Shown here in pieces: positions 735-64,000 of a stretch of DNA of 64,000 bases (positions within the stretch are counted from its first letter, which is position 1; each line of letters starts with the position of its first letter). Under the pieces are notes generated by a model, which saw only the letters and a list, made by a program, of their open reading frames with translations, was not told where the DNA came from and made no database searches. Origin of the DNA: Psammoneis japonica (taxonomy: Eukaryota); assembly GCA_008632985.1 (NCBI GenBank), contig QPGO01000013.1, forward strand, positions 496,001 through 560,000, read 5' to 3'. Both the position numbers and the translations under genes were made by a program.

Positions 735-1579
735 GTGTGTAATACAGTTTTGAAGTTTAGAACGAGCGGAAGAGAGGCCTATTGTATAGATATGTCGAGA
801 CGCTGGACGCGACGGTAGAAGGAGCCTCCTTTTTCGTGTGTACGAGTCGAAATAAATCTCTATAGACTTTTTGGTCGTTTTCGTGAAACACATCATGGCT
901 TTTGCTCTCATCATATATCGTAGTCTATGAACGAATCGCCCGGAACTCTTTCATGTCGCTTTATGATCACGGCTTGGTGTTATGGCCACTCGGGTGCCAC
1001 CGTCTTATACCGTTGTTGTTGTTTTTTTCATCGGCACACCGCCATCGTCATACCGTACATGCATGGTCTTTTCACTTCTTCTGTTCAGTCGAGTCCAACC
1101 AAAGACAGACACGGACACCAAAAAAGTATCTTTCTTTTACACAGACAAATAGACTGTCTGTCGATCGTTCCACTGCTGTCCATCCCAGAGGTTCCACATC
1201 CCCGGAGCTCTCAGCTTTGTTGCTGTCGGCAAAAAGAAAAGAGAGTCATTGTTTTTGGTGGAATTGTTGCTCACCAACCAGCACCAAGACCATCATTCCA
1301 AGGGAACAACTCAGCCAAACAACGGCAGTTGCCGATGTGCTGGCAGCGCTTTTTTTTTGTCAAGAGGGGGGTGCCGCTTCCGTTGTGGAGAATGCGTGCC
1401 ATGTGTTGCCATTTTCTCTGAGTTTTTTGTTGCATGAAATGCCATGCTAAAAGTGATGTGGGGAAGCGACACAAGAAACACACACAAAAAGTGTGGCAGG
1501 GTGGGTGGTGGTTTTGAACCAGCCTCTTTGCAGCTTGCCAATGTGCACAAGGCTTTGCGCAAGCTGCAGGAGGATTTTG

Positions 1580-1930
1580 TTTGCAAGCTGGTTGCAAAAC
1601 TTGTTTGCAAACAAGTGTTTGTGAAATTTCAAGGGCCTCATGTTCATCATGAGACCCCACAAATGCAGAGGGACCCTCCTGCAGAGCTCTGCGCGAATTT
1701 TTGCATGTGGCACTGAAACATGTAGCCTGCATGCGCAAAACTGGCACAGTTTCTATGACAAAAATCCGAAAAAACACCTGGTTCGCGAGACAGCTCTGGC
1801 ACAAAACCTGCGTGAACAGTCCCCATGCATTCAGGCAGAACTCTGCACATTTCCGGGTTGCGGGTCCCTCCGAATTTGTGGGGTCCCATGATGAATGTGG
1901 CTGCAAACTCGCTTGCAAACTGGTTGCAAA
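1580..1930. repeat. Imperfect inverted repeat (possible MITE or TIR remnant)
   Basis: TTCATCATGAGACCCCACAAATGCAGAGGGACCC (~1643-1676) is the near reverse complement of GGGTCCCTCCGAATTTGTGGGGTCCCATGATGAA (~1862-1895). TTGCAAAC-type motifs flank both arms. Confidence 0.6.
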
Positions 1931-4900
1931 CTGAAGAGCTGAAACAGCTTGCAGCTCAGTCAGTGTGCATGAATCGCGGGCATGGCATGATGGTGAGGAG
2001 ACACCCCCCACTTCTTGCCAAGAGAGGTCCTTGCCTCTCTTGCTTCTTGCTGCAGCACTGCAATGAGGTTTCACTTGCTTTCAACTGTGCTGCACTGGCG
2101 TCATTCAAACAATGTGCAGCAAAAAGAGCTCACAAATGTGGTGGCAGAATGTGGCCATTTTGTGCTCTTCATTCTGCAAACTGGTTTGCAAGCTGCAAAG
2201 CAGCTTGTTGGAAGAATCTTTGCAAGCTGCAAAGGCCAGTTTGAACTCCACACTGCAGCTGCGGGGCAGCTCTGTCATTTTTCTCTGCACCAACCTGCTG
2301 CGGGAGGTGGCCTCAAATGTGCCAGCAACCAATTTCTCAATGGAGGGTTCTTCTGCAACCCTCTCCACTCTTGTCATGGGCTGTCTGCTCAGGCAGAGTG
2401 GTCATGAGCACAGTGGAGATGGCTTGCGCAGCTCTTGCAAATCTCCAGCTCCTGCTTTTGTTGGCCCTTTCTCTTGAAGCCTCCTGCTTTGGCATCCCAA
2501 GATCTTCATTTCTGTCTGGCTCTGCCATCAGTGCTGCAGCTGGGGCACTGGGGATGCCCCCCCCATCATTCATGCCTGGATTGCAAGTTCATGGCACGTG
2601 CCTTCTCCCCCCACTGAAACACAACTCTTTGTTCTGTTTGCAGGTGACAGCATTTCTGCACTGGGAAAAGACAGCTTTCAGCTGTTCTTCTGGAGCTTGC
2701 AAGAACCATGCTGTCAGATTTGTCATCATCATCTTGTGCTCTGCCAGCAGCAGTTTCCTGGGGATGAGTCTCCAATCCAGAGGCTCTGATCCAGAGGATC
2801 CTGCTGATCCTGATGTCCCTCCATTGCACAACACGTGCACCATGCTCCTCCTCTCTGATGAGGATTTTTGCCCCACCTCCTGTGTGTGTGTGTGCTCACC
2901 CGCCATTGTGCCAGCAGGGTCCTGCTTGTTTTTGCATCTCTGCACAGACAGAGTGCAGGGTCTGCTGACTTTGTCAGCTGGGAAGCAAGGGTCACACAAA
3001 AGGAGCATGCCAAAAAATGGTGCCTTCTTTTGACAAAGCCTCCAATGGCATCTGCTTTGATGCAGCTGAGGAGAGGCCATGTGAATTGCTCTCAAGAAGT
3101 GCCCCCTTTCTGGAACATCTGTTGCAATTTTGTTGTGAAGCAGGACACTGACAACAAAGCAATGGAAGGAAGGCCCCAAGTGCTGCAGAGCCCTGCCCTC
3201 TCATGTCTGCAATTTTGCCAAGGCTTTGCAGATGATCTGGCTGTGGAGCCAGCACCTCATGACAAGCCTGCTGGAACTTGTCTCTCCAACCAAATCCAGA
3301 AGATGTTGGTCTTCTTGCACGCTTCTGCCAGAGGCACCCAGCAGCCTTTCTGCTGCACAATGCCTCCTGGCGGCAATGTCTGCTTTCTGGACAAGGCAGG
3401 TGGCAGCCTGCATTTGTTTGCAGGCAGCCAAGAGATTGCAGATGGCAAGTGAGGTCAATGCAGGTCCAACCACAAGGAATCACATCAGATTTCTGCTTTT
3501 GTCTTTTGAGTTGCTTGTGCAGAGCTGGCAGCATTTGTGTTGTTCCAAGAGGTGCAGAGCTGCTCATGTGCTCCTTGTTCTCAAAAGAGAAGAGCTTGGC
3601 TCACATGCTCCTCATCCAGAACAAGAAGAGAGCGCAGAAAAAGCTGCAGACAGAGGGGCACAATGGGAGCATGATTGCTGCTTCTTTGGCAACAACATCA
3701 ACACAGGCACAGCTTTTCTCCTGGTGGCCGTGTTTGTTGGCTGTTCTGTGCACTGTGACTGGCGGGAAAGTTGAGCCCTGAAAATCAGCAAGGGATTCTT
3801 GCTGCTTTTGCACAGGAATGAATGTCACTGGCTGCAGTCATTGTGGTGGCATTTGCTGTTTTTGTGTGGCTGAGTGACTGTTGAGTCATGCTCAATGATG
3901 AGTGAAAAAGCAAAAGCTCAGCAAATGACTGTAGCTTGCACCCAGAAACATGACTTGCTGTTGTGTCTGCAATTTTTGCAGTGACACATTTTGTTTTCAT
4001 GGTTGAGTGTGTGCTTGGCTGCACTCAATGGGCACAAAAGTAAAACTCAGTGAGGGTTTGTCTTGCCTGTGTTCAGGAACACATGTGTTGCAGCACAATC
4101 TTCAAACCAACACATTTTGTTTTTGCAGTGTCAAGCAAGTGTTCAATCATGCTCAAGAGATGCACAACAAAAGATTGTGATGCACAGATGTGGTCATGTT
4201 GTGCACTGCTGGATTGCACCTGCCAGAGACAGCTTTGTGAAAAGACAATGCAAGTTCTTAGAAGCAGAGGCTTTTGTGTGTGCAAAGCAAGACAGCAGAT
4301 CAACTTTGCACTTGCTGCATTTTGTTCAATGACGCGGTGGTTGCAGCCAAGTGGTGGGAGCAGAAGGAACAAAACATGGGCAGGGAGGGGCATGTGCATG
4401 CTTGGTTTGCAGATGAGAGCACATTTGCTCTCTGGTGCTGGCTGGGCAAATTAGAAAAATTTGGCCAACAGCAGCTTTGTCTGAGGGTTTCTGCTTTGGT
4501 GGAGCCTGCTTGAGCTTCTGTGAGTGCACCAGCATTGATGCATCCAAGAAGCTGGAGGATGACAGCAGCCCATTGCATGTGGGTGGTTGGCAAGCTCATG
4601 GTGCCAGGAGTGTTGGCACCAGCAAAGTGCTCAGCTGTGGGACACAGGGAAAATCACACTGCGGTGGCCTGTGGCTCAAAACCAGGGTTGGAGCAAGGGG
4701 CAGATCAACAAATGTGGCAAGGAGCTGCTCAGATGAGTGCACAGCCACCAGGCTGCACAAACAGCACTGACATCTGGTTGATGCCAGCAAAAAATGCCTT
4801 GTCGCTCATGCAAGCTTCCTGCAGTGGAAAGTGTTTCAAGCAAAAACACACACCACATGTGCACAGCTGATGCTCACTCTGCTCAGCATCTGCTTGGGCA

Positions 4901-6977
4901 CAGCAGATGCACTGGCACAATTGTGTGTTGCTGGCTGCAAGCAAAGCCGCACTGCAGCAGGGGTTGTGCATTCTCAACTGCCTCCCAAAGTCATGCCAAG
5001 TGTGTGCCAAGACTTTGTGCACAAAGCTTTGCATCATGCAGCACTTGCTGAGTGCCAAAATGAGCTTGATGTGAGCCCTTTCTTGTTTTCGTGGACAGAC
5101 AACTTCATGCACACATGTGTGAGGTGCAAGCATGCAACTCAACTCATGTGGTTGAAAATTTTAAGCTTGCAGCAAAATGGCCTGCTGACTCAGAAATGGG
5201 CTCACAGTTCTCATCAACAGCAATTTTTGCAGCTGGTGTCTTTGTGCTCATCAACAAATTTGGTGGGCAGGGCACTGTGACATCACTCCTGCAAGTGTGC
5301 AGAGAAACCCTGCCAACTGCCAAAATCAACAGTGCCACTGCCCAGCAACAGTGCTTGCCAAGCTGCCTGCAACTGTGACTCCACCCTTGGAGTGAGAAAA
5401 AAAGCTTGCCAAGTTCATGGCCAAATTCAGCCAAATGATGCAGAGTGGCTGTGACCCTCAAAACAAAGACCTGCAAGGAGCAAGTGCAGTCCTTGGGCAA
5501 AATCCACACCAGAGTGTGCACACCCAGCTGTGACCAGGAACATGTTGTTTTCAATCACTCTCAGCTCAGGGCACAGAGCTGGGTGAAGATGGCCCATGGA
5601 GTGGCACACTCTCAGCAGCAGCTGGTGCCGAGCGGAGATGCCATGTTGAGCACTGCATGCCACACCAAGCAAAAATGTGCCCAGGACAGAAAGCAGGCTT
5701 GTCTGGCTGAACAACAAATGAGAGAACTCCAAGCTCAAAGAGTGCCAGCACACCACACAAGGCTGTTGGCACTTGTGTCAAACAGGGGTGAAAGACCAAA
5801 CATGAAGCTGACACTGTCATGCAGACCCTGCCAGGCTTTTCTGCACAGCTGCACATGCAAGACAATGCACTGACAAATTGAGCCCTGTCAATGGCAAGAT
5901 GTCTGGCACTCTGTGGCCATTGTCATGGGGGAGCAAGCTGTGGCATGCACTGCACTGATCACTGACAGATGCCAGCAAACATCTTTTGATGCAAGCTTTC
6001 TGCAGCAGAAACAAAGACACATCACATGTGTGTTTGCATTGCATGTGAGCACATCACCTGCAGCCAGCAGTGCTCATTCTGCTTGGTGCAAATGCGTGTT
6101 GGTGCAATTGTGTGCAAGCCATGAGTGAGCCCACACTGTGCAAGATTGAAGCTGCACCAACTGCACATCTTTCAGTGCTTGCTGTGTCCCAAAATGAACT
6201 TTGAGTGGTGAGACCATTCTCCATTTGTGGATCATGGAGAAGCTCATGAGCACAGGCAAAGCAAGTGCACAGTTCATGCCCTGGTGGCTCAACATTTCCC
6301 AGTGCAAACTGTGCTGAGAAGTGGCCTCACACAGCCACCACCAACAGCAATCTTTGCACCCCTGCCATCTGTGTGTGAGCTCAGTGCACAAGGCAGCAGC
6401 TTCAAAGGAGAACAGCAAAGAAAAGGAAGTGAGGGGTGACACAGCAAAGAAGCAAGAGGAGGGCTGGGGTGGCAGCCGCAAGAAGCACACTCTTGATGAT
6501 TGTGCAAATGCAGCTGGGTCACATGGCTGCAACACAATTTGGGGTGATGCAGCACCCAAAAGGCTGGGAAGGAGGGCACATTTGAGCTTTGCACTGTGGC
6601 TGAGATGCAGCAGCAACAGGGCTGTGGTGCTCCATGTGGGAGTGGAGCTGCAGCAGCAAACAGCAAATCAAGCAAAGCTGCTCTTTTGAGCAACAAACAC
6701 AGAGCACACTTGAGTGCTGCCTTGCTTTCCCAGCTTCTGGCAAGAAGTTGCTTGTTGGTTCTTGTCCAAAACATTTTGGAGAAAAGCCAACATTTTTGTT
6801 TTCAAAGTTTCCAGCCACAGCACTCAGAGCTGCAAAACCTGTTGTTTTTCATCATTTGAAGAAGCTCCCAGCTCCTGTCAGACAGGCAGACCTCAATCAG
6901 GGAGGTCCTGCCTGCCCAGATGTGGCTGGCAAAAAAAGAAAAGAGCAGGGTGTTGGATGTCATTTCCAAAGCTCTGA

Positions 6978-7230
6978 GTGTTGGAGTTTCATGGCTTGTC
7001 AGCCAGTGTGCACTCAGTCTTGCCAACCCCGAACCCACCTCGTGGCTCACAAGCACATTCCGAGTGGTGCCGTCAACTGCTGTTGCCATGTTGGCTGGGT
7101 GCAAAAGCCAAAAAGTGAGCACAAGACCCACAACTTGATCTGAGTTGTGAACAGAAATTTGCTGCATTGTCCACAATTGTCAGCACATCTTCTGCTGTGA
7201 CTTTGTCCATCTGTCCTGTGAAAGCCACCT
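6978..7230 (-). repeat. Diverged repeat copy A of a degenerate coding sequence (copy B at ~10095-10450)
   Basis: Shares TTGGAGTTTCATGGCT, CTCAGTCTTGCCAACCCC and AAGTGAGCACAAGACCCACAACT with copy B. Minus-strand translations align (IKLWVLCSLF vs IELWVLCSLL). Confidence 0.75.
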
Positions 7231-10094
7231 CCAGTGCCAATGTTCCAACACACTCCTTCACACAAAGAGCCGTCAATTGAAAAATGCCATGTGCACATCA
7301 AGCACAGGAGGATGACACTTGGACTCCATGCCACCCAATGCCACATTGGCTGTTCCACCAATTCCTGTGGTCCACATCATCCAACTCTGCCAATGAACAA
7401 TCATTTTCAAGGTGGTTCTTCCTCACATGTCCAACTTTGTTTCATTTCCAGCATCCAATCTGCTTCTTCTCTTTCTTTTCAAAACTTGTGCCATCAGGTT
7501 TCTTCTTGGTCCCACAGGTGTCCAACACCTGCAGTGCCTCCTTGGCTGAATCATGGGTGCACAAGCAAACAGCTGCGCAGGCCCAATTGACATCAGATCA
7601 GTTGCCAGCTGCCCCCCTCTTTCCAGTGCAGCTGCACATTGGCAGCAGGGGCTTCAAGTTTTTGCATGCTAAATTTTGCAGTTCAGAGCATTTTGGAATT
7701 TTGGATTTTTCTGAACACCACAACACACAACAACACTTGAACAACAAGCATCAATGCTGCCATCAACGGGACAATGGAACAGATGCAGGCACCATCGGAG
7801 CTGCTTCATTTTGTCAGTGAACTCATTGCAGTGCAATGGCACCTTGCACCCAGGCTGCAACCAATGACACAAAAAAGAAGGCAAAGAAGGCCTGCATTTG
7901 CAGCTGGGGCGACAAGTGCAATGCAACACATTCCATGTGCTTGGCATCCAACAAGCACAACATGACCTGCCTTGTGAAAATTGTGGAGAGATGAGAACAG
8001 TCCACTGCAATGTTGCACTGAAAATCACTTCAACTTGAGCAGAGATTGCAGGAAAAAGCACAAAGTGTTGGCTCATCACTGCCTGCCAGAGCTTGCAGGA
8101 AGCTGAGGAAGGAGCAAACCAGTTGATTGAAGACAGGGTCTCAAAAGACTTTCTTTGCTCTCATGCATGGAAGCAGCTTCACAATGGAGAAGACAGCAAA
8201 GCAGTGACTGCTGACAACTCCACCCATGATCAGGATGAGAGTGTGTCTGTCCCTGAGATTGTTGACAGCACGGTCAACAAAACATCAGTGCACCACACAT
8301 TTCTGGCAGGGCCCTGCCTTGTGGCAACACAGGGCACAGCAAAGGCTGGGTTTTGTTGCAACCTGTGTGTTTCAAGATCACTTGGCTGCACATTGTTAAA
8401 ATTTGCCATCTTTGAATCTGTCATCTGAGCTCAATTTTGCAAATCATGCAGTTCCTCCTCCACAAGCCACCATGTGCTGCTTGTTCTGTCCAGAATCCCC
8501 TGTTTAACTGCCGCTCCACAGGCCCACTTTCTGACAGCTCCACAAGAATGAAGTTGGTGGCAACAATGTGATGCAAGCATTGGCTGCAACACAAAGGACA
8601 CCACAGAAAAGAGATGATTGGAAAAACATCCACATGAGTGTCAGCCACTCAATGTGGATGCAGCCAATTGTGGTGATCTCTTTTCAACCATCAATCAACT
8701 GAATTCACACAAAGCAATTGTCCCCCATGACGAACCAGAAAGTCTGATCACAACAACCCAAAAGAGACCTTGTGAGGTGTGTGATCACTCATGATGGTCC
8801 ACAGCACAAGGTGCAAGGTGCTCTTTTTGTCCAACATCATCACATGCTCCTCCAGAAGATGCGTGTGATGCTCCTCACAAACACAGCCATTGTGCAACAT
8901 TGTGGAGGGATTGTTTGAGCAGCTGTGGACTCACTTTCTTGATGGGTTCTTGAGAGGTTGCCAACAACTCCTTCCCCTCCTCCTGCCAAGCATCTTCTGA
9001 CTGAGCAACTTTGGCTTAGAGTGTTTCTCCAAAAAGAAGAAAGCATGGATTTGAGGCTCTGAGTGTGTGACACAAAAGGCTTGCTGAGCTTGAGCATTGC
9101 ATTGACATGAGTGGCAGATCAAGCTAAAGCTGATGAGAACAAGAGGAGCAAGACAAGAAAGCAGACACACGCCATTGCAACATGCCTTGCAATGCATGGG
9201 CAGCACCAACAACACCAACAGATGATGATTTTTGAAAAGATGCAACAAGGTGCAAGGTGCAGATTTGGATCCATGGGTTGAAAAAGCCCCCCCCCTCCCC
9301 TCAAAATTTAGCACACAGCAAGTTGAAGACTCCGCAGATGCTGTGGGATTGCACTGCAAGTGGGAGGCTGGCCAGCAACCAATGTGATGCTGATTGAACA
9401 TGGCCCATCTGTCCTGTTGTCAATTGTGCACCCATGGGCTGAATTGGTGCAAATGTCACCCCCCAGTGTGAACTGGCAATGCAGGTGACATTCCAACATT
9501 CCTTGGCACCTTCCACTGGCATCACTGCTGACAGCTGGCTCCTTTCTTTGTTCTGGGTGTCATTGGCATCTTTGCTGAACCCATCTTCTTTCCAGTCAAT
9601 TTCTTCTGTGATCATGATCCTGCCATGGGACATTTCTGCCGCTTCAACTGCACTCACAAACTGACCAAAACAATCTTGAAGCACTGCTCCTTTGTCTTGA
9701 CAAATGAGTGCCAACTGTTTCCAAACTTTGACTGCCTGGATGTGTGGGTTTGTCTTCTAATTTGCATCAAACAAAATTGACTTGAGAACATCCACCAGTG
9801 CTGCCATGTCCCACTCCTTCATGACTCTTGCAAACTTTGCTGCTGGTCCTTCAATTTTTTGATGAACAGCCTTCACACATGATTGTCCCACAATTGTGTT
9901 GAATGACCTCACCTTCTCACCTGCATCTCTGGCCCAAACATTCTTCCAACACACACTTGCCAATCTTCCTCATGGTTTTGATGCAACCATCTGCTTGTCA
10001 CCCCAACTCAGCAATGGTGTCACACACACACTCCTTTAGATCTTCCGTGCTTCCATGCTCAGCTGTGTCCTTGCCCACATTTTTGGGAACTTGT

Positions 10095-10450
10095 GTTGGA
10101 GTTTCATGGCTTGCAGACAGCTGTGCGCTCAGTCTTGCCAACCCCAACACAACCTCACTGTGTGCCCTCTTTCAGCAGACCCTTTTTGGCTTCTGTGTTG
10201 GAGCTTCATGGCTCACCAGCAACAAGTGCATGTTCAGCCTTGCCAACCCCAAACTCGCTGTGTGGCTTGCAAACATGTTCCTCAATGCTGTTGTCTGTTG
10301 CTGCAATGTCAGCCAGGTGCAGAAGCTGAGAAGTGAGCACAAGACCCACAACTCAATCCCAGCTGTGAAGGTAAATTCACCACACAGTCCACAATCATTG
10401 GCGCATCTTCCGCCGCAGCTTTGTCTGTCTGCCCTGTCAAAACCATCTCT
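10095..10450 (-). repeat. Diverged repeat copy B, with a short internal duplication of one end
   Basis: Aligns to 6978-7230. The TTGGAG.TTCATGGCT...CTTGCCAACCCC block occurs twice (~10096 and ~10198). Confidence 0.75.
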
Positions 10451-13400
10451 CTGACCACAATGTTCCATCACTGAGACTCTCTCTGATGCTCTTGCAGAGC
10501 AGCTCCATGTGCAACAAAATGAGCAGTGCAGTGGATCTGCTTGGCTGCTTTCAAGCATTTTGCAAAAGTCAAATCCAGTGCAGCCAGATCTGCTTCTGCA
10601 CATTTGAGCCACTTGAGTCATTTTAGTCTGTCATCAGCATCCTTGAATGGCATCACTGCAAATCTCATCAGCACACCAGCTTGTCTTCAGGAGGGGAGGT
10701 TCTCCATGGTGCAAAAATGAGACCACATTTTGGACCCTCATTGTGCCAAATTTTTTGATGACTGCTCATGTCAGTCAGCTTTTTCACAAGCCATCACATG
10801 CACCATCTTCATTTCTGAGCAGAAAAACATGTGCAGTGTTTCCTTTTCCAAGACCCCTCACACAGCACAGTTTTTTCAGGTGCTCTGCTGCCTTTTTTTG
10901 AAGCATGCAATGCCTCACCTCAGAGCAGCACACCAACACAATGGCACTCCTCAGCTTCTTCCTGGAGTTGGCTTTTTTGGTGGACCCACTCAAATTCTCT
11001 GGAAAATCTTTAGGAGTTGAGCTCACTCTCCTCTCAGGCGCCCCTGCCAGCATTGGTGAAAGGGGCATGTTGTGTGGGGAGACATCGGCACTTCTCAGAG
11101 TTTCCGCCATCAGTGCCAGACAACAGCACAGCCTCTGGTTGCCACATGACTCTTGTTTGTTGGAGCTGGTGCCAAGAATGAGGGATGATGACATCACAAC
11201 CTTTTGGCACAACATTTGCAGCCAGCTGACATCATCAGCAAAGTGTGAGAGGGCTGCTCTCCTTTCACATGCTGGTGCATCTCCCCCTGATGCTCAGCTT
11301 TGCACTGCTGTTCTCTTGGCAGAGCCTCCGCCTCCCATCAATCCTCAAAATTGTTGTGCCTGCTGTTCATCAAAACAGTTGGACAAATGTCCAAACCAGT
11401 TGCTCTGCCTCAGCCACCAGCATCATCTGTTTGTCACATTTGACGGCCGGCTCTGTTTGTTTGTTCAAGAGAGAGAGAGAAAGAGAGAGAGACATCTGAG
11501 ACACTCCACTTCTTGTGAAAAGCTGGAAATTTTCCAGTTGTTGGGGGAGCTGCCCAGAACACGTGCACATGAGAAATTCACAGGCACGCTGTCACCCAGA
11601 GGTGTGGCATGAATGACAGACAGGGAAATGCAGCAGAAGTGGGCCATGCAGGCAAGAAACCAATGGGTTTTGGGCAGGGAGCAGGCAGCAAGTTGGGTGT
11701 GTGGTTTCACAGAGCACTGGATGAGTTGATTGGCAAGAAGGGACTTGATGATGACCAGGTTGAGGCTCTGAAGGTCCCATTGCACCAGAGCAGCAGTGCC
11801 AGCAGGAGAGGCCAAAATGGGCTGATGCAGTGTTGGACCAGGTGGCTGTTGCAGCGGGGAACATGCCTCCTCACAGAGAGAGTTGAGCACTGGTGTGGGT
11901 GGTGCAGGCAGATGGATGAAGAAAGGAAGATTCCAAAGTCCAGGTTGGGGCAGGGTGGTCTCAGTTGGCTCCAAAAAGGAGACAGTGAGCAAAGCAGCCA
12001 GGCATGGCAAAAGGGACCAGATGCCCGTGCACTCACAGAGGAGATGACAGTCTTGCTGTGTTGTGTCATTTGTGAGTGCCATGGAGTTTCTGCTTGGTGC
12101 TTGCATGGTTTCCCTTGGTGAAAGGGTTGCGCCAGGGGGTGGGCAAGCCAGGAGCTGAAAGAGGAGGTGGCTTGGGAACCACAACATGGATTGCAAGGCA
12201 AGTGTGGCAGAGAGGGGATGCAGCAGATGAAGCAGGAGTGAGCTTGACACCCACATTGGCTGGGCAGAATGAGGTTGGTGGGCTCATGGTGGACAGCAGA
12301 AAGGAATTTCTGCAGGTGCCCAACATGGGACAGGGGGGCAACAGTTTGCAAGATGGCAGAGGTGCCATTGTAGATGGCACATTGGAAATGGTGGTCTTGT
12401 GTCCCACAAGGAGTGGCGGCAGAAAGCATGATTGCTGCATGGGCCAGCATTGCCATTGCAAGAGGGTGGGCACATGAAATTGCATCGTGTTGGAGGAGAT
12501 GGGCAGATGAAGCTTTTGATGCAACACAAGGCAAAAAACATCAGGCATTGGGATGGAAGGGACAAAGCAAGGAAGTGGAGAGAGGGCAGAGCCATGGCAA
12601 CATGTGGCAGGCTGTGATGCTGCTGGTGGTCAAGCTGTCAAAGGAAGTGAACATGGTGGCGGCAGAGGGCATGCAACAAATTCTTGAGTGAAGTGGCTTT
12701 GACCAAGGCAGATGGAGAGGGAGGCAGAGGGTTGGGGGAGGGAAGAATTGTGGCTCCACAGTGGCGGAAGACTTGGCACAAACAATGCAGTGATTGGTGG
12801 CAGGCTGCCCAGGTGGTGTGCAGGGAGCATGCAAAGAGGGGGGTGGGGGGTGGGGGGGGTGGCAAGCCCTTGTGTGGCCCATGGCAAAAGGAGCGGGAGT
12901 GGTGCTGGCAGCAATGGATTGGTGCCCTGTTCCACCAGCTGTGGCTGGAACATGTGACAGGAGAATCAGCATGGAGGAAGGGAGCATGGCGAGGTGGCAA
13001 GGTGCATGGAGATGTGCATCACAGCACTGCTGTGCCATGTCTTGGAACAAAGGGATCCTCCAGAAAGCTCAAAGAAAGCAGCAGTGGCTGGCAGCAATCT
13101 CTGCAGATTGGGTTGGGTGACCTGCTGTTGGGTGGAGGAAAGACAGAGTTTGTTGTGGGGTGGCGGTGCTGAGCTCTGGCAAGTGCAGAAGGGGGGAGCT
13201 GGTGATGGAGAGGCAAGGACAGCATTCTTGTCTGGGCTGAAGCAAATGCAGCAATGGAGATGGCTGAGGGCAGTCAACCAATCAAGAAACCATGTGCACT
13301 GTGCTCAAAGAACGAGCACAAACAAAAGTGGAGTCAAGTGTGAAAAGTGAAAATTATGAGATTAAATTTTGCTCTATGATTTTTGGTTTCTCCGAACGAG

Positions 13401-13663
13401 TTCTCAATGGCCTAAAGCTTCTGTGCTGCTTCCACAGACAAAAGGCCTTTCGGAGAACATGTTCGTGACAACAGATTGTCCGGATGCGATTGCTGTTGAC
13501 ACGTGAGATGTCAACATCGTCAATCAATCGCATTTGCAATTTTCGACATCCGATCAACTCTGTGTGATCGTTCTGTCCTTTGCACGCATCCACGACTGTG
13601 GTGCGATTGACACATGAACAATGTGTGATTGTGAACATGCACACAACAGTTGCATGCTGCACA

Positions 13664-13846
13664 NNNNNNNNNNNNNNNNNNNNNNNNNNNNNNNNNNNNN
13701 NNNNNNNNNNNNNNNNNNNNNNNNNNNNNNNNNNNNNNNNNNNNNNNNNNNNNNNNNNNNNNNNNNNNNNNNNNNNNNNNNNNNNNNNNNNNNNNNNNNN
13801 NNNNNNNNNNNNNNNNNNNNNNNNNNNNNNNNNNNNNNNNNNNNNN
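13664..13846. other. Assembly gap (183 N)
   Basis: Run of N. Confidence 0.99.
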
Positions 13847-13849
13847 CCC

Positions 13850-16423: not shown

Positions 16424-17741
<1,318 letters not shown>

Positions 17742-35453: not shown

Positions 35454-35601
35454 TGTCCTTTCTTCTAAAGAAGGGGATATAGTTTGGTATAGAATAACAC
35501 AGCAGTTATATTGGACAGATGGACATGTTGCACATGGATCACCATTGTTTTGTATCGTAATAACATTCATTATTCACTGAAGGTGCGTCAATTAAACCGT
35601 G

Positions 35602-43429: not shown

Positions 43430-43439
43430 CACATTGCAC

Positions 43440-50199: not shown

Positions 50200-51300
50200 G
50201 TGGCAAGCCTGCAAGTCAACAATGATGATCTGGGGCTGTGTCTTGGTCTTTCATCCTCTTCTCTTGCAAGATGATCATTGAATGTGAGATTGTGGGCAAA
50301 CAGCTTGCAATGTTCAAGTTGCTCTGGGAGTGGATCATTCCAAAAGTCCCGCAAGGCAACAATTCACTCCAACTGCCCCAAGAATGAAAGCATGGGGATG
50401 ATTTGGTCACCACCTCATGCCCAAAGTCTCCTCCAAACTGATTGGACTCTGCCCTTGTTGTGGTCATCAACAGCATGGCTGAATTTGTTGGGATGCTGGA
50501 AGGTGTCGTGCCAGTTCTTGCCATGAACAGTGCACAGCCAAGTCTTCTGTCTGCCAACATGCTCATTGGTGTTGCAAAAAGACATGAGCATCACAACATG
50601 GTTTGGCTCTTTTGTTGCAAATGCATTTGCTGGTGCATTGTTGAGAGTGCCTGCAATGGATTCAGCATTGCTGGCCTGCTTGTCATTGAAGTGCGCAATG
50701 ACTTCATCCCTCTTCTTTGTGTTCCTTGGCCACCAATGCTGATGCTTCTTTGTCAATGCCATGGCAAGCTCACCTTTTGTTCAAAGCTCTGCAATCCCCC
50801 AAAGCACACAAAAGCCACTGTCCAATGCAACAACCTTGGCACTGTTCCAAATGGGTTTTGAGAGTCAAAGCAACAGCCCAGCCATTTTGCCTTTGTCGTC
50901 ATCATGCTTGGGTCTTGGTCTCTCCTGTGGTGCTCATCATTGCCCTCCACCAGCTCAACAGCATGCATTGCACAAGACAATCCACAGCATCTGGCATGAC
51001 ATTCATTTCTAAATGGCTGCAGCTTCCTTGGACAAAATGCAAAGCCAGGGCAGGTGTGTTGGTTCATCCAAATGGACACAGACTCATCAATGCAACTCAC
51101 TCAGCTTGGAGTGAAGTTCTCCATCATGTTGTCATTCCAAGCTTAAATCATCTGCCTCACTTCATGGAAAGGATCATTTTGCAAATTGGGGCCTGCTGAT
51201 CTGTGCATCAGATGCATCTTGGGATTTCCTCAAACCTGTTACATGACATGAGATTACAAAGTTAGAGTGGAGTGCTGTCAAACCTTGTGATTGCCTTGGT
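50200..51300 (-). mobile_element. Degenerate piggyBac-like (DDE_Tnp_1_7-type) transposase
   Basis: CIDESVSIWMNQHTCPGFAFCPRKLQPFRNECH..CCGLS...VELVEG, KKHQHWWPR, KEPNHVVMLMS, AVDDHN. Confidence 0.8.
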
Positions 51301-51466
51301 TGACCAAAAGCCACTGTGCCATGGACCTTGAATGGCAGCCATCAAAAACCACATGCTGATCCAATGCAAGCACTCACCATGCTGCACTCTCTCTCTCTCT
51401 TTGCACATCATTTGCATCAATCTGGGGAACAATTGTGCCCAACACAAACAACTTTGAAAAGAACAA

Positions 51467-52133
51467 TCCATGCTGGAAGATGCAGGCTCATTGTCATTGT
51501 CCTTGTGCCACTGCCTTTGGTTCGTGCACTAGAACAGCATGCCAATGAGTTGTGGAGTGTTTGCACCAACATGCACTGTGGAAAAGGCACCATCGGAACC
51601 ATGTGTTTGTGGCAAAAGGAGCAAACACTCATGGTGGGGTGCTTTCTTGTTTGCAATCAAGTTCACAATGATGATGAACTGTTGGAATGGAACAGCCTTC
51701 ATCTCATCAGTGTGACTCCACAGCAGGATGGTGCAAAGGCCAAGCACACTGTGAATTCGTCAGCATGGGTGGTTTTGTGTGGCAAGCAAGAAGCCAGCTC
51801 ATCCGCCATTTCTGGAGCCTTGCATCACAAGCTGGTCTCCAAGATTTGTGCCTTTGGTGCTGCCACGCCTTCAAGTCATGTAAAGAACCTGGGTCCAACT
51901 GTGGAATCCATCGACAGTGACTTGAGATCCAACATGCACTCTGTCTGTCTCAGCAAGACACTGCAAGTGGCAGAATCCACCCGAACGCCAACAGATGGTG
52001 GGATTGTCAAGCCAACCAAGAAAAAGGTTCCAGGTGGGATGCCAATGGTGGGTTTGGGAGCTGGAGGAGCAGAGCATGCCGCAATGATGAATCAGGCCAT
52101 TCTTCGCGTAAACTCAAAAAGACAGGTATCGAG
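51467..52133 (+). pseudogene. 5'-truncated, hypermutated copy of the capping protein beta gene
   Basis: Colinear with ~34785-35453. VYTDMYYGKGAVGSVYLW has become VCTNMHCGKGTIGTMCLW. 1-nt deletion near 52105. Confidence 0.92.
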
Positions 52134-52285
52134 TAGTGTACTTTCGTCTAATAAGGCTACAAACCATGATAGATTTTTTATCACAGGATTTATATTGGAC
52201 AGATGCCCATGTTACACATGGATCACCATTGTTTTGTATCGTAATAACATTCATTATTCACTGAAGGTGCGTCAATTAAACCGTG

Positions 52286-53377
52286 CTACGCACCAACACC
52301 GCAAAAGTGTCCACAGCCAGAACGCTCATACGACCAGGCTTCCTCTTTCTTCCACTTTTTGAATTCCTCAAAGGAAATTTTTCCATCTCGATTCGAATCA
52401 ATGGAGTTAAACTCACGGATATTATGGAACGTGTCCATGTCAAGGTCAAGCTCGGAAACAATTGCCATGAACCCATCAATGTCAAGGAAACCGTCTTGGT
52501 CGTAGTCGAACTTGCGAAAGTCGATAAACAGAATAGCGTCATCCATTTTGTGGTGGCGAATGCCTTCAATCATTCTAGCTGGATTGCGACCAATGCAAAA
52601 GGCAACCAATCCGACAAAGATGAGGATGGATCCAATAATGGTCGTCTCGAGGGCAGAATGGCTTGCATGAAGCAATCCCAACGAGAAAAGGAAAAGGCCG
52701 CGACCCCATAAAAGTCGCATAAAGCTCAAATGCTTGGTAACGAAAAGCCGAGCTGATGTTGAAAATGATTTCGGGTCTGGGCTCCTAACCTCACAAACCA
52801 AGTACAAGGCGCCCATGATCCAAGAAGCCACTGCAGTCATGCCGTGAGAAATCGTTGTCCAGTTCAAACCCTCACTTAGATACTGGTCATACACGACAAG
52901 AACGCTTGTTAAGTACATTGCAGTCACTGCACAGATACAAAAGTAGCGAATCACCATTGGTCCGTCTTCGGCACGTGACCTTAGCTTTTCGAGTTGCTTG
53001 CTCTTGGAAATGTCCTTGTCGACTGCGATACGTTCCGCCTCCATTTCAGATCCTTGGTAAGGGATTTCCTTCTTATCAGGATCTTGCACTGATTTCACAT
53101 CTTTGTGGGCTACAGATGGACTCGCGATGGCGGAGGGACCCTTTGGTTGCTTGCCCGACAGCACAGTGTCCGTCTCCTTTTTCGGTCCGGAAGCCGCCTT
53201 CTTTTCTTGGTTCTGGTGATTGGAAGCTGCAGCCTCTCGATCGCCTGAAATAGAGTAGTCCAGTACAACCATTTCCTCATCACTGCTATCGTCCATCTCA
53301 TTAACATCTGGAGGAGTGTATGTGGATGGTACTGCCTTTGGCGCCTCTTTCTTTTTGCTCCTTCCAAACAATCTCAT
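52286..53377 (-). CDS. Multi-pass membrane protein (COPI-associated/Tvp15-like) with two C-terminal EF-hands (intact copy)
   Basis: About four hydrophobic segments; FMRLLWGRGLFLFSLG; DYDQDGFLDIDGF and DSNRDGKISFEEF. Confidence 0.85.
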   Translation of the reverse strand: MRLFGRSKKKEAPKAVPSTYTPPDVNEMDDSSDEEMVVLDYSISGDREAAASNHQNQEKKAASGPKKETDTVLSGKQPKGPSAIASPSVAHKDVKSVQDPDKKEIPYQGSEMEAERIAVDKDISKSKQLEKLRSRAEDGPMVIRYFCICAVTAMYLTSVLVVYDQYLSEGLNWTTISHGMTAVASWIMGALYLVCEVRSPDPKSFSTSARLFVTKHLSFMRLLWGRGLFLFSLGLLHASHSALETTIIGSILIFVGLVAFCIGRNPARMIEGIRHHKMDDAILFIDFRKFDYDQDGFLDIDGFMAIVSELDLDMDTFHNIREFNSIDSNRDGKISFEEFKKWKKEEAWSYERSGCGHFCGVGA

Positions 53378-53958
53378 GGCTGCTTCTTTCACGACAGTCC
53401 AAGCCTATCAAAAACAGAAGCTCTAGCTAGACTAGTTCCAATTGAGTTCAATATAACTACTCTGTGACTAGATGGGTTCTTGAGACATTAATCTGCAACC
53501 TCTTTGAACAACCAAACACTCGCTCTGTTCACAAATTTCAACTGCGAAGAGCAAAAAGTGAAAGGAACCTTGGCGATCGATAGTTTTAAGTGAATATCGC
53601 GCTTCGAATGTTAAATCATATTTGGCGATACAAAAATAGTACTTTTCTTGTGACTCGAGAAGCGTTGGGGCAATAATAAAATTTCAATATTATTATATTT
53701 GAACGTATATATATTCCAAGTCACTAATGTTTCAAACGGACGTGATTATGAACATACCGTACGGAAAAGCGCGGGAAAAGACTTCGTCTGTTCCGCGTCG
53801 GTGAAACACGTACTTTTCGCTCATGCTCTTCAGCTTCCCGCCACCTCTCACGCACGTCATTCGCATCTGGAGAATCTTGTCAGCCATCACCGCACATCTT
53901 TAGTCTGTATCACTGCCAACATCGTCACAATTATTTGAAATCACCGTTTGTGTTTGCC

Positions 53959-59188: not shown

Positions 59189-59440
59189 TTACAGTACGGC
59201 GCGCCCTCTACTCATCTTCTTCTGAGTGCAATCGGGGTCAAGTTTCATGTCCGTCTGACAAAGCCATTTGTCGCCTTTTTTGACGTTACAATCCTCACAA
59301 CATAAGACATAGTTCTTAGCTAAGTCTAATCCGTGAGAGTGGCTTCTCGGAATTACATGATCTATGGTGGCGTTTCTTTTGCTTGGTTCTAAGCAGAGCA
59401 GTGGTCGGCACACGTGTTGCACACAGTGCAAAATGCAAGA
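59189..59440 (-). pseudogene. HNH endonuclease domain fragment at the domain boundary
   Basis: TIDHVIPRSH...NYVLCCEDCNVKKG; upstream part lies in TA/CG-depleted DNA. Confidence 0.7.
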
Positions 59441-62400
59441 GATTCTGAAGACCAGACAACACAGGCCAACACAGCCTCTACTCTCTAGAGTGTCAAAGCT
59501 GGAGTCCTGCAGGTTGGCACACAAGAAAACGTGCAGTGCTCTACCAGCAGGAATGTCAAAGCAGCTGTGGTGGCACTCTCCTTGCTGCTGCTCCCTCTCA
59601 CCTCCTCATGTCTTGCACTGTGGCATTTTGCAAAAAAGCACGCTCTGACGATGCGACTGTTCAGCTGCACAACAGTGGAGTTAGAAGCAAACTGTGGAGG
59701 CATTTCAACCACCTGTGAGTCCCACAGGACAATGCTGAAGAACAGCCCAAGCTGCTGGCGTGGGGGCAGGGTTGGGGCTCTGAGCAGCTCATTTCAAATG
59801 CCTGCCTCATGATGTGAAACTGATCTTTTTCCCAAAGAAGCCAGGTGGAGAGAAAACAGCACTTTGTGCAGGCTTTTGTTGGGCAACAGCAGCATTAAAC
59901 AGAGCTGACTGCAACAGCCAAAACATGGGCTGTGTGCCATTCTGACATTGTTTTTCTTTGTGCTCTGTCAACCATGCCACCTTGACATTGTTCTTCTCTG
60001 TGTTCCTTTCCTTTTGTCAAAAAAAATCTGCAGCAGTTGTCTGGTGGTGCAACAATCTGACAATGCATTTTTTGTTTTCATTTTAAAATTTCTTGCACGC
60101 TGTGATGCAAATCTTGGTTCTCTGATTCAATTGTTTTTGTCGTGTCGCACACAAGAAAATTCAAATGCAATGAGCACACGGATGATGTTCCTGACAATTT
60201 CAAGTGCAACACTTGGTTGCTTTTCACTGTGCAACAAATTGCTTTCTGTTCTCATTCTGACTTTCAAAGGACATCCTGTCTTCAATGAATTTTTTGTTGT
60301 TGAAACTGTGAGTTGAACTCCAGTCATTTTTGCTGCTGTCATCATGTGCTGCTTGCCAGCAAATGCTGCCACTCTGCTGCCTGTGTGGTCATGTGCTCCT
60401 TGTCCACTGCTGTGAGTTGTCACTTGCTTGGCCTGCTTGCGTGGAAGTGGCTGCAGTTGTCTGCAGGTGCTGCTCCTGGAGTCTCTTCCTCTGAATTCCC
60501 ATGTGCATTGTCACCTCCCTCCACTTTCTCATTGCTGTTGCTCTGGCCAGTTTTTGGAGCAGCCCACCCCTTTGTTCTTTCCTTTTTCTTCCTCTTTCTT
60601 TTGTTGCCACATGCACTCTCTGACACTTCTTCATCTGCAGGCACTGTCCATTGACTCTGTTGCGCTCCTGGTCAGCTCCTTTCTCTCTTTTTCTGCTGCG
60701 TTGAACAACTCATTGCATCTGTTGATTCCACTCTGGTTCCATCCTTGATTTCTCTTTGCATTCTTCCTTTGAAAGGTGTGCTTGGGGGGGGGNNNNNGGG
60801 GGGGGGCAAAGGCTGTCTTGTTTCTTCCACTCTTCCATGTCTTTCTTCTCCTTGTGTTGTGGCTCCATTTCTGCTGTTGCTGCAGCTGTCTTGCAGTGAT
60901 TTTCATGCATTAGCCTGGCAAAAGTTTCTGTGCTTGTTGTCCTCAGCCAATTGCTGGTGTCTTGGTTTGCTGCCATCTCAAACTGCTCTGTTCCAGCTGC
61001 CATGGAGTGGCAGTTTTCTGAGAACCAGAAGTGCGTGCATGGCAACTCCCTGCCCTTTTTGAAGTTGTCAACAGCTTTTGGGCTGTCATCTCCAGCCAAA
61101 GCCAAGCAAGAACAAATGGGTGAGGAGCAGTCTTCTCCATTGCATTTCGACACCACCTGCATTGCATGCACCAACCATGTTTTTCCCAAAAACCTCCTGT
61201 CTGTTGTTTTGTCCCCAATTTGGTCTTTTCTTTGCTTCTCCTTCTTCTGTTCTTGCCAAACTGCACAGTCACTGTTGGCCATGTTGAGGTGTTTGCAAAC
61301 CGTTTTCTGCATTTTACTGCCAAAAGCCAACTTGACCTTGTCACATGTCATGAACTTGCTCTTTGGGTGCACTGCCATTGCAGTGCAGTCAGCTCTCATT
61401 TGACCATCCACAAACTTCCTTTTTCAGCTGCCTCTGAGCTGCTGACTGACATCCCTGCAATCTGCACATTGCGGGACCCCATCTCTGTGTGTCATGGGCA
61501 CTGACTGCAACCAAAAACACAACCTGTGTTGGCAGCCAAACCCACATCTGTCTCAGTGTTGCTTTCACCACAATGCATGCACCTGGTGAATTGTTTTTCA
61601 CCAACATGTTTGCCCATGCATTTCCACAGTGTTGTGTCCCCAAGATTTGTTTTTCAGCATTGACCGCAGGCCAATCGCACCTGCCAGCACAGTGTTGGCC
61701 TTTCTCTTTTTTTGCTTCTCCTCTTTGAGTGCCAAAATTTTCAAATGGCTCAGTTCACAACATCAATGCACACATCATGGCATTGTGTTTGAATGGCATT
61801 TTTTCCAATGCTGCAGCTCCACATCACATGTCCACAGTTGCATGCAACACACAAAGAACAACAACACTGCTGCTTTTTTCATGCCACATTTTTTCAAATG
61901 GGTTGCCAATTCAACAAATTTTCAGATGCTTTTGTCAATTCACTGAGTTCCAGCTCAGTCTCATTTGGGCTGAGGCTGTGCAACTAAAAGGAGCTGCAGT
62001 CATGCTGCTCCAAACCTGTGATCTTGGTTGGCTTGTGACGGGAACTTTCAGCACTTGGTTTGCTGTCTGGGACCCCATGCTCTTGGACCTTGCTCATCAT
62101 CTCTGACCCTTCTTCCTTGCTCATCTTGGCCCGTGTTGACCTGCAAACTTGGAACAAGTGCTTGAGACAAGGGTCCAATCCCATGTGATGTCCCTCCATT
62201 GCCAACTGGACACATGCACAGTGCACCCTCAATCCAATGAGTTTTTTCTCTTTGCAAAACACCATGTCTCCACTGACTGCAGGAGGAAACCAATCATTGA
62301 TCAGTTGGTTTTCCAACACCCTGTCATGTTTTTCCAGATGAACTGCATCTGTCATTGTTTGCTCATCCCTGATGTTGAATGGCTCCCACACATGTGGTGG

Positions 62401-64000
62401 CAGAGAGCACACACAAAATTCTTGGGAATCTGCAAGTCTTGTCTCCTGGCTTGCACCCAATCACTGTGGTGCAAGGCCGATGCTGCCAGGTGTGCAGCTG
62501 CTCCACCACTTTCTGTTTGCTGAAACTGAAGATCAAAGCATCTCTGTCCAGGTGTTCATCAAAATGGATGCATCTGTTTCTCACAAATGTTTCCAAAAAA
62601 TGCATCTCACCAGTGCTGTTGAAAGTCTTGCCATCTCACAGCAAAATGAAAATTGAATTTTTGATGGCCACAGCATGGCCCACTTTTGTCAAGCTCATGG
62701 TGTGAATGGAGTGGCATGAAACTTGCCATGCACTCTCTGTGCAACCACTGCACTGGCTCAGCAGGCCTGTGCTTGTGCGCCAAAGCAAACCTTGGATCAC
62801 CCATGTCACTGTGCATCTCTGTGCATGCATTGTCATCCACAATCACCTGTTGCAAAGTGTTTGTTGTGTGATGCCACATGCATTTCTTCACTTTGTCCAT
62901 TTTCAAAAGATTTTTGTGTCAAGACAAGAAAAAAAACATGGTGAACAAGGCTTTCTGATTGTGCCAGGTTTTCCAGCTCAGGCAATTGCAGGCATTGGGA
63001 ACAGCACCCTGGCAACTCTGCCACAGTTTGTTTTTTGATGTTGTTCATCACTCTCCAGTGACAACTTGGCATTGTTGTTCTCTGTTGTGTTTCTTTTGCA
63101 GTCCAGCTGCATTTTGCAATTGTGGTTTTGTTGCCAGAGGGGCAGCAGTCATGATTTTTGCCAAACTCAAAATTTTGGTGGGGGGGCAGCAGCCACACCA
63201 TTTGCTTGTTTGAAAAATGTGGTGTCTCAATTTTCATGATTGAGGTGCGTTGTTTGTGTGTTCTGCATTTTGTGCAATGAATGACATTGAACATTCAAAA
63301 CTGTGCTTTTTTGTGTCAAATGTTGCTCAAATGGTGCATGAAATTTTGATCATCATTCTTCATTGTGTCATTTAATTTCCATTGAATTTGTGGTTGAATG
63401 AAATGCACTGTTGCCAAAATTGGTGACCCACAATTTGTCATCACCCTTGGTGACAAAAGGAGAAACAACATCATCAAATGGTTTGGAAACAAATTCTTTG
63501 TTGTCCAGGTGTGCTGGCACTCTGAAACATCATTGGCAGCTGGCCAAATGGCAGTGTCATGAGAAAGATGTGGCTCTCACACTTGTGCCACTGCACGATT
63601 GGATCTCAGTGGCCAGGGATTGTGTTGCAAGTCCACAAGACAAATGTGGCATTGGAGTGAGATCCCGTTGCAACCATTTCAACAGGAGGAGGGGCAAAGG
63701 TGGCTGGAAGAGGCAATGGCATCACCTGATTCTTTGGATTCTCTTGTTTGCAGCTGTTTGCCATGAGCATCTGTCAACTCATTGCCTGAAACACCACAAA
63801 TGCATTGAGAAAAGGAGAGTTTGCAGAGCAAACAAGCTCTGAGGTGATGTTAAAGACCAATTGGGAGGAAACATTTGCCGCAAATGGGGCAATCATTTCC
63901 TGCGGCAAAGGAAGGCATCATTGTTCATGCTGCAAACAGAGTGAGATGGAGATGTGTGGGAAGCAAAAATGAACAAAATGTGAGCCATGTGGCAAAAGCA
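59390..64000. other. CpG/TpA-depleted degenerate domain 4 (runs off the window; 5-N gap at 60793-60797)
   Basis: Same signature; fragmentary minus-strand coding remnants I cannot name. Confidence 0.9.

Follow-up and report, generated by a model that had tools for sequence, protein, structure and literature searches.

What could have erased two dinucleotides, TA and CG, from long stretches of an algal genome and left both in the genes that lie between those stretches? The question is raised by 64,000 nucleotides of the diatom Psammoneis japonica (assembly GCA_008632985.1, contig QPGO01000013.1, positions 496,001 to 560,000 of the forward strand), a stretch called the window below, with positions counted from its first letter. 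An earlier note, made from the letters alone, had described four blocks with almost no TA and few CG, and proposed an undescribed hypermutation system that converts both dinucleotides to TG or CA. We consider it likely that two separate site-specific transition processes rewrote in place the silent DNA between transcription units, one acting at TpA and the other at CpG. The diatom origin that the earlier note took for granted is borne out by an open reading frame (ORF) for GAPDH, whose product is 91-93% identical to the plastid GAPDH of pennate diatoms (Phaeodactylum, a Bacillariaceae metagenome-assembled genome, Mayamaea, and Fistulifera).

The blocks are set apart by their dinucleotides. Pooled over 32,952 bp, they hold 105 TA where about 1384 would be expected and 346 CG where about 1786 would be; as pooled observed-to-expected ratios (o/e), TA stands at 0.05 and CG at 0.18, together with 3797 TG (o/e 1.81) and 3700 CA (o/e 1.86). 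The 30,106 bp of normal zones contain 1264 TA (o/e 0.60) and 1632 CG (o/e 0.98), with TG at 1.15 and CA at 1.16; G+C content is nearly equal, 0.485 in the blocks versus 0.471 in the normal zones. Block 1 (1250..16050) holds 30 TA and is interrupted by an assembly gap at 13664-13846. Between 1400 and 16100, where the earlier note had counted roughly two dozen TA in about 13 kb, there are 31 TA in 14,518 bases, in keeping with that count; DNA as dense in TA as the normal zones would have 610. In 14 successive 1-kb windows from 2001 to 15001, TA o/e is 0.00-0.09 and CG o/e 0.03-0.45, with TG and CA each at 1.59-2.34. Windows of the same size give a like pattern at 36-40 kb, 43-52 kb, and 60-64 kb, corresponding to block 2 (35900..40200), block 3 (42480..52095), and block 4 (59400..64000), the last of which contains a gap at 60793-60797 and extends past the end of the window. 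In the gene zones, TA o/e per 1-kb window is 0.43-0.90 and CG o/e 0.70-1.35.

The edges of the blocks are abrupt, to about 100 bp; their limits agree with those of the earlier note to 100-200 bp, and at 52,100 the TA count rises from 0 to 11 per 100 bp. The non-ORF DNA of the normal zones (10,495 bp) has TA at o/e 0.72 and CG at 1.02, the maxima for the window, and since this gene-zone DNA is normal the depletion belongs to the blocks and is not a bias of the whole genome masked in genes by selection. Both the four blocks and their normal neighbors were thus correctly described. The sum of CG, TA, TG, and CA is kept, at 239.4 per kb in the normal zones versus 241.2 per kb in the blocks, and conservation of this pyrimidine-purine sum fits the prediction of pure conversion. 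We simulated the two conversions on the window's normal DNA, with hazards fitted on the TA and CG classes and the product classes left unfitted; the trinucleotide correlation with the blocks was r = 0.970, versus 0.666 for unmodified DNA. Joint depletion (TA o/e <0.15 together with CG o/e <0.35) was found in 0 of 751 1-kb windows from 79 unrelated loci, a control set that was fetched via GAPDH, includes 10 diatom-like loci (82-93% identity), one of them longer than 2 kb (6 kb), and is uninformative on other diatoms.

The direction of change was read from pairs of copies in which one member is unmutated. The first pair lies in a 1.36-kb direct duplication (34785-36148 and 51467-52828) that runs from the middle of capB, the gene for F-actin capping protein beta, to the middle of a convergent EF-hand gene. 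The left copy retains an intact capB, whose last exon (34584..35453, + strand; Pfam PF01115, E 1.5e-43; present in a spliced RNA contig) is the unmutated reference, copy A. The right copy retains an intact gene for the EF-hand/COPI-associated protein (52286..53404, - strand; from Pfam and alignments), which is the source of two fragments in or beside blocks. Copy B of capB, a pseudogene fragment (51467..52095, + strand; PF01115, E 5e-17), lies in block 3 and is hypermutated: compared with copy A, 14 of 15 TA are changed (7 to TG and 5 to CA) and 25 of 31 CG (12 to TG and 10 to CA), versus 6 of 58 TG and 5 of 55 CA (together 11/113). The remaining differences (46 of 626, or 7.3%) show no transition bias, with 24 transitions and 22 transversions. 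Changes of A to G outside TA are rare, at 8 of 145 non-TA adenines; by context, A>G is seen at 3 of 48 AAN sites versus 8 of 15 TAN sites. The rest of the duplication (52096..52828, + strand, by alignment to copy A) lies in the active zone of the EF-hand gene and is not hypermutated. Between 35491-35866 and 52171-52550, 23 of 376 aligned bases differ (6.1%), including 3 of 17 TA and 2 of 18 CG; the divergence of the capB pair outside TA and CG is comparable.

Two more pairs tell the same story. In block 3, a hypermutated copy (49425..49814, + strand, by alignment) derives from the 5' portion of the EF-hand gene and the sequence upstream of it; relative to its source at 53233-53598, all 16 TA are changed (13 to TG or CA), as are all 9 CG (7 to TG or CA). 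In block 1, a copy of a repeat end (13878..14022, - strand, by alignment) has an unmutated counterpart at 42360-42498, against which both TA have become TG and 11 of 11 CG are changed, 9 of them to TG or CA. Summed over the three polarized pairs, 32 of 33 TA are changed, 27 to TG or CA, and 45 of 51 CG, 38 to TG or CA; changes at TG and CA together number 34 of 181. These pairs support the conclusion that CG and TA were rewritten in place to TG or CA, on both strands and inside the blocks only. They bear out what had been read from internal duplicates.

Where both members of a pair lie in depleted DNA, the traces of conversion take another form. Two repeat copies in block 1 (6978..7251, + strand, and 10195-10471, from their alignment) were mutated independently: nucleotide identity is 71.8%, purine/pyrimidine identity is 92.8%, and 298 aligned bases hold 73 transitions and 26 transversions. 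Dinucleotides that read TG in one copy and CA in the other number 18, and 38 are concordant; such discordance is the signature of an ancestral CG or TA that was resolved separately in each copy. A self-BLAST of the window in purine/pyrimidine code, in which a reversed-sequence control reached up to 302 bits on a tandem repeat and weaker matches were ignored, showed no internal homology besides the pairs already known. Other copies in the genome, seen through reads, differ from the window at 130-140 places for each type of transition and at 10-22 for each type of transversion. Most copies of the high-copy repeat at the start of block 3 carry TA at 42506 and CG at 42597, 43143, 43221, and 43224, where the window has TG or CA, and CG is likewise found in the few contigs that cover 42769 and 42793 (all among 40 of 661 rows of the comparison). 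The repeat family is therefore not natively TA- or CG-free there, and the suspicion that such elements simply lack TA by origin does not hold at the sites shown.

The bases themselves agree with sequencing reads. Public DNA run X1 contains 0.88 of the sampled window words, and contigs assembled from its reads are identical to depleted DNA over 35996-38335, 39032-41951, and 48998-51942 (2340, 2920, and 2963 bases); the second spans the edge of block 2 at 40.2 kb. Word depth of the matching contigs is 63-75 in depleted DNA versus 57-64 in genes. At position 42506 the window's G has a depth of about 56 out of 1099, which is single-copy depth, and other copies of the repeat carry A. Because the contigs are identical to the window, polishing and assembly errors are excluded. 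A second run, X2, is RNA-like; we read it as RNA because one contig, covering 34234-34482 and 34584-35499, is spliced over an intron with GT..AG ends. X2 gives no cover over most of the blocks, a lack that is not taken as evidence.

Loss of TA follows a rule of its own. Among the 105 surviving TA, 71 have T before them and 60 have A after them; 1 has A before it and 8 have T after them. A per-strand multiplicative model of 5'-TAN-3' fits the 16 NTAN counts (deviance 9.2, 12 degrees of freedom, p 0.68), and uniform TA loss is rejected (deviance 227.5, p 5e-40). Pooled per-strand survival of TAN falls from 0.82 when A follows, through 0.32 (G) and 0.10 (C), to 0.037 when T follows, with the pooled figure exaggerating the protection of TAA; the robust rule is that TAY (Y, C or T) goes far ahead of TAR (R, A or G). 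The order ATA/TAT <= GTA/TAC < CTA/TAG <= TAA/TTA holds in all four blocks. The share left ranges over the blocks from 0 to 0.031 for ATA/TAT, from 0.014 to 0.051 for GTA/TAC, and from 0.108 to 0.447 for TAA/TTA; in block 1 it is 0.008, 0.014, and 0.108, respectively, with 0.093 for CTA/TAG and 0.085-0.242 for the CG classes. The 34 TA and CG conversions of the capB pair fall 17 on one strand and 17 on the other, in 19 runs versus 18.0 +/- 2.9 expected, and thus show no strand clustering.

The two losses also come apart in time. Block 3 shows the least CG decay, its CG classes standing at 0.23-0.49 of expectation, yet ATA/TAT is down to 0.013 and GTA/TAC to 0.051. Five 500-bp windows have at least 30 CG per kb and only 0-4 TA each. 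Between 42500 and 44000, a segment that includes the very high-copy repeat 42672-43338, TA is nearly absent and CG is near its normal density: the 500-bp windows from 42500, 43000, and 43500 contain 0, 3, and 2 TA and 26, 18, and 16 CG. Since TA is gone where CG is intact, TA loss outpaces CG loss and does not require it, and the two processes are separable. The proposal that a second, A:T>G:C activity at TpA works in the same domains as CpG loss therefore stands.

The CG process prefers other neighbors. TCG/CGA is the most depleted CG class in all four blocks and GCG/CGC the least depleted in three of the four; the favored 5' neighbor is T or A before the C of CG, and A or G before the T of TA. 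Their separability and their different flanking rules make it unlikely that one enzyme does both jobs. Methylation-driven CpG decay resembles the CG process in turning CG into TG or CA on either strand and in being restricted to silent domains; it differs in that TA loss is beyond its reach and that TCG/CGA is the most depleted class here, an order unlike that of spontaneous 5-methylcytosine (5mC) deamination in human data. Diatom transposons are CG-methylated via DNMT5a (PMC9998398).

A close parallel for the TA process comes from the chlorarachniophyte Bigelowiella natans, in which mutation-accumulation lines revealed A:T>G:C hypermutation restricted to TpA (Mettrop et al., bioRxiv 10.64898/2026.01.13.699255, April 2026). 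In that alga the mutation rate of two integrated viral regions, of which one is transcriptionally silent, is about 1000 times that of the rest of the genome; 230 of the 231 mutations in these regions are A>G or T>C, all of these on TpA, and the genome holds 124 clusters of windows poor in TpA and rich in CpA and TpG. The hypermutation is active in only some lines, and an ADAT2-like adenine deaminase is proposed as its candidate agent. The parts of the preprint drawn on here make no mention of CpG, flanking bases, diatoms, or stramenopiles. On this reading of the preprint, the likeness to the diatom blocks is fourfold: changes fall on TpA only, giving TpG or CpA by strand; they are restricted to particular silent regions, with the remaining genome normal; long-term clusters of 1-kb windows are poor in TpA and rich in CpA and TpG; and recognizable annotation is lost from the mutated genes. 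The differences, within the same limits, are of host (a rhizarian versus a diatom, i.e., a stramenopile) and of extent (TA o/e 0.45 in the nucleocytoplasmic large DNA virus insert versus 0.05 in the diatom blocks, which are near saturation). The diatom blocks also lose CpG, with 38 of 51 ancestral CG converted to TG or CA, and follow a rule at the +1 base (TAY over TAR) that goes unreported there; rates were measured in B. natans and are only inferred here.

We propose the following explanation. A first process would be a fast A:T>G:C change at TpA, yielding TpG or CpA, that acts on the strands independently and takes 5'-TAY-3' over TAG and TAA; it would be of the same kind as the process in B. 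natans, run to saturation in a diatom, and may be related to that activity. The second process would be a slower loss of CpG to TpG or CpA, of the familiar kind to which cytosine methylation in silent diatom DNA should lead; given that CG>TG/CA is separable from TA loss, it is probably laid on top of the first. Targeting would depend on the state of chromatin or transcription and not on repetition or foreign origin. A duplicate in an active zone was spared and host fragments were hit, which argues that the trigger is silent intergenic position rather than duplication or foreignness; silent or methylated chromatin would then define the domains.

As to chemistry, the first process may be the deamination of adenine in DNA by an enzyme of the TadA/ADAT2 kind, the resulting inosine being read as G. 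Activity of TadA-derived editors is highest when T precedes the A and lowest when another A does; it is better before C and worse before A (PMC8989541). They and the process at issue thus share A>G that needs T before the A, with the same preference for C over A at the next base, as far as that source describes it. ADAT2 enzymes are said to act on DNA in amphioxus and Trypanosoma (as cited in 10.64898/2026.01.13.699255). The natural role of TadA and ADAT2 is tRNA editing, and action over whole chromatin domains would be new. On the strength of this qualitative match in flanking bases, a TadA/ADAT2-like deaminase is the leading candidate. The TadA-like candidate of the earlier note fits the flanking-base rule in outline; the match does not extend to the +1 T. 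More tentatively, and as a possibility that we would rate well below the two-process reading itself, diatoms and chlorarachniophytes might share an ancient, chromatin-guided defense, a natural DNA adenine editor derived from TadA/ADAT2, which would convert 5'-TAY-3' to TGY in any transcriptionally silent DNA, independently of cytosine methylation and faster than CpG decay.

Several points weigh against this explanation. After the two-conversion simulation, residuals of 0.8-1.4 fold persist for some trinucleotides: AGC/GCT, CAG/CTG, GCC/GGC, and CCC/GGG stand at 1.2-1.4 times the prediction in the blocks, and GAA/TTC, GGA/TCC, and AAT/ATT at 0.8 times. They may reflect a differing ancestral composition, to which the tandem repeat rich in GCT at 43.8-44.16 kb would contribute, or some additional weak bias; the baseline for all survival figures is the window's genic DNA, and the original make-up of the blocks may differ from it. 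Protection of TAA is uneven, since block 3 contains 29 of the 40 surviving TTAA; in the other three blocks the share of TAA/TTA left is 0.11-0.17, near the 0.09 of CTA/TAG. A direction-of-change test of the per-strand model in the polarized pair gave nearly equal log-likelihoods, -22.89 versus -22.87. The silence of the blocks is read from their position relative to genes. TadA editors differ in detail, in that T at +1 is here at least as good as C, going by the part of that work cited above, and A-directed and T-directed chemistry leave an identical outcome in sequence. In B. natans, as far as the cited parts of the preprint go, there is no matching excess of G:C>A:T and the targets are viral, whereas the diatom targets include host pseudogene fragments and show no recognized viral or transposon protein (0 of 169 block ORFs matched a transposon or viral Pfam family; apart from the capB fragment, the hits were three weak ones put down to chance); that the two systems are kin is therefore a matter of inference. 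Run X1 may be the assembly's own source data and does not amount to an independent platform, and the evidence base is one 64-kb window.

The rival that survives best, although we hold it to be unlikely, moves the chemistry of the TpA process to the other base of the pair. A TET/JBP-like dioxygenase or another modifier would act on the T of 5'-RTA-3', the oxidized T would pair with G and give T>C, and an enzyme of the same class might act on the 5mC of CpG. Methylated CpG and TpA both bear 5-methylpyrimidines on both strands, and oxidized thymines are mutagenic toward T>C. The outcome would be that of adenine deamination on the opposite strand, and all of our counts fit either equally well. Counting against it, the literature as consulted in part reports 5-hydroxymethyluracil in dinoflagellates and offers no evidence of it in diatoms. 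An enzyme shared between thymine and CpG has the further difficulty that the flanking preferences of TA and CG differ and that TA is lost without CG loss.

Very unlikely, in our judgment, is that TA loss is a by-product of repair, whether through an error-prone patch laid down after 5mC deamination by a Pol eta-like polymerase or through an over-active T:G mismatch glycosylase that makes replication errors at TpA permanent. Co-occurrence of the TA and CG signatures in the same domains is what such a scheme would give. The A>G errors of Pol eta fall on the WA motif (W, A or T), that is, at AA as well as TA. The blocks do not bear this out, with AA at o/e 1.30 versus 1.16 outside and AAA/TTT at 1.16 times its normal density. 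Between 42500 and 43000 there are 26 CG and no TA, so TA loss is independent of nearby deaminated CpG, and it is the faster of the two. An error-prone patch is also at odds with the divergence outside TA and CG, which at 7.3% in the capB pair compares with 6.1% in the unmutated part of the duplication. The Pol eta-like candidate put forward in the earlier note falls on these grounds.

A mutation triggered by homology before meiosis, after the manner of fungal repeat-induced point mutation (RIP), has if anything still less in its favor. RIP makes C>T changes only, creates TpA, is triggered by duplication, and leaves strand-clustered changes; what it has in common with the diatom blocks is heritable, transition-only scrambling of unwanted DNA with a dinucleotide footprint. 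The driver would be DNMT4, which is related to the fungal RID, has no known function, and occurs in 31 of 60 diatoms (PMC9998398, as consulted in part), and the mutated sequences of the window do include duplicated DNA. Here, however, TpA is destroyed and not made, A:T>G:C is included, and the changes do not cluster by strand; the contrast with RIP drawn in the earlier note is thus upheld. Nor is duplication sufficient: about 730 bp of the 1.36-kb duplication, some 94% identical, are unmutated in both copies, which lie in active zones, and most copies of a repeat present hundreds of times retain TA and CG at sites changed here.

Least credible of all is that there was no mutation to explain, and that the pattern comes from misread modified bases or mispolishing, or from elements that lacked TA and CG from the outset, for instance because CpG and UpA are selected against in RNA: two assembly gaps do lie within blocks, the sole DNA run found may be the source of the assembly, and joint avoidance of CpG and UpA is known in RNA viruses (from sources consulted in part), but the k-mer read contigs are identical at single-copy depth (including the G at 42506), two host-gene fragments are converted relative to intact copies, and a mutated fragment that continues into unmutated duplicated DNA leaves no room for an RNA intermediate. 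A mispairing base would in any case turn into a true mutation at the next replication.

Other candidates were dropped. ADAR editing by way of an RNA copy was set aside because the duplication continues unbroken from the capB fragment through about 730 bp of sequence, intergenic and antisense to a gene, that is unmutated. GC-biased gene conversion is not TA-specific and cannot remove CG. UV photoproducts were dropped on the 5' neighbor order of CG, T>A>C>G, which is not pyrimidine-specific. N6-methyladenine at TA was likewise dropped, the literature consulted in part tying the eukaryotic mark to transcribed DNA.

What the blocks are made of was sought by read depth and by protein family. Repeat 42672-43338 has a word depth of about 54,000 (54,440) compared with about 65 where DNA is single copy, and must number hundreds of copies; 46674-48007 stands at about 3,700 and 38003-39336 at about 1,000. 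The ORF scan that gave no transposon or viral family took in the 169 ORFs of at least 90 amino acids in 33 kb, in all six frames, against Pfam at E <= 0.01. An ORF at 47376-48257 lies in a repeat whose depth is about 57-fold; no relative of it turned up in a word-indexed library or among 1.84 billion representatives. Since the capB fragment is still detected (E 5e-17), transposon genes of intact length that carry only this kind of mutation should be detectable; the blocks consist either of noncoding repeats or of much older debris. The label "TE-rich" (rich in transposable elements) given to these domains therefore fits only in part: some stretches are high copy by depth, but no block ORF matched a transposon or viral family and two host-gene fragments are among the targets. 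Block 3, besides these fragments, holds the high-copy repeats and a tandem repeat at 43799-44158, of period 51/111 and GCT/GGC-rich, which looks like a Lys/Gly/Ala-rich coding repeat. A consequence of the conversions is that stop triplets are nearly gone, with TAA and TAG on both strands at 5.4 per kb in the blocks versus 34.9 per kb in normal DNA, which leaves long false ORFs in all six frames; such ORFs can mislead gene finders and repeat annotators. The capB pseudogene is open over 265 codons.

Some smaller features of the blocks were also recorded. The high-copy repeat 42672-43338 appears in run X2 as well, in a 226-base contig (43097-43322). Part of it lies between the two members of a 140-bp direct repeat (42963-43102 and 43298-43439), which are 95% identical. 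Near 43.25 kb it has the look of a tRNA T-arm, an impression discarded when ARAGORN found no genes and Rfam none at gathering score, with low-complexity chance matches only below that score; a 30-base stretch of the repeat had no match in metagenome contigs. In other copies, read contigs join 47845 to 42360 with 5 other letters between them, as though 42360-47845 were a single repeat unit of 5.5 kb that elsewhere, in tandem or circular form, has its two ends side by side. Within block 1, beside the assembly gap, an islet of about 250 bp (13350-13600), perhaps inserted more recently, retains a few TA and a moderate number of CG (the 500-bp window that starts at 13250 has 16). The duplication 34785-36148/51467-52828 brackets about 15.3 kb of inserted DNA, comprising blocks 2 and 3 and one gene, and resembles either a target duplication of unusual length or a tandem duplication later split.

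The blocks occupy the space between transcription units and halt at a distance of 200-500 bp from the ends of ORFs. The gene zones encode GAPDH, capB, the EF-hand/COPI-associated protein, an aldose epimerase, a kinase, and a SET-domain protein. The gene for plastid-type GAPDH (16599..17741, + strand) lies about 500 bp from the edge of block 1. Block 2 starts about 450 bp past the capB stop codon and ends about 240 bp before the ORF at 40443, the start of a gene island (40443..42197, + strand; RNA contig over 40453-41951) that separates blocks 2 and 3 and is normal in composition. The capB protein is strongly divergent, with 37% identity to its best match among 5.8 billion proteins; the window's GAPDH is 93% identical to that of other diatoms.

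The two-process reading makes the diatom case an extension of a recently described TpA process. The word "undescribed" must accordingly be narrowed: the TpA part has its 2026 precedent in B. natans, as the portions of that preprint cited above describe it, and the literature searched contained no description of TA and CG being erased together in diatoms. What is new is the lineage, the saturation, the accompanying CpG decay, the host-derived targets, and the rule at the +1 base. To judge from the same portions, TpA-directed A:T>G:C hypermutation has so far been reported once, from viral inserts of one rhizarian alga; a saturated footprint in a diatom suggests that the process may be widespread among the SAR algae (stramenopiles, alveolates, and Rhizaria), which include major primary producers of the ocean. 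Its targeting seems tied to silent chromatin rather than to foreignness or repetition, and within the same DNA it is separable from CpG decay. The preference for TAY over TAR, on strands acting independently, is a testable sequence rule with which candidate enzymes can be screened, and a natural DNA adenine editor would interest genome engineers. If diatoms and chlorarachniophytes do share an ancient editor, a comparison of genomes that carry the footprint with genomes that lack it could lead to the enzyme, TA-free domains would be expected to mark silent chromatin throughout the SAR algae, and TA-containing signals would be permanently stripped from the DNA that these algae silence.

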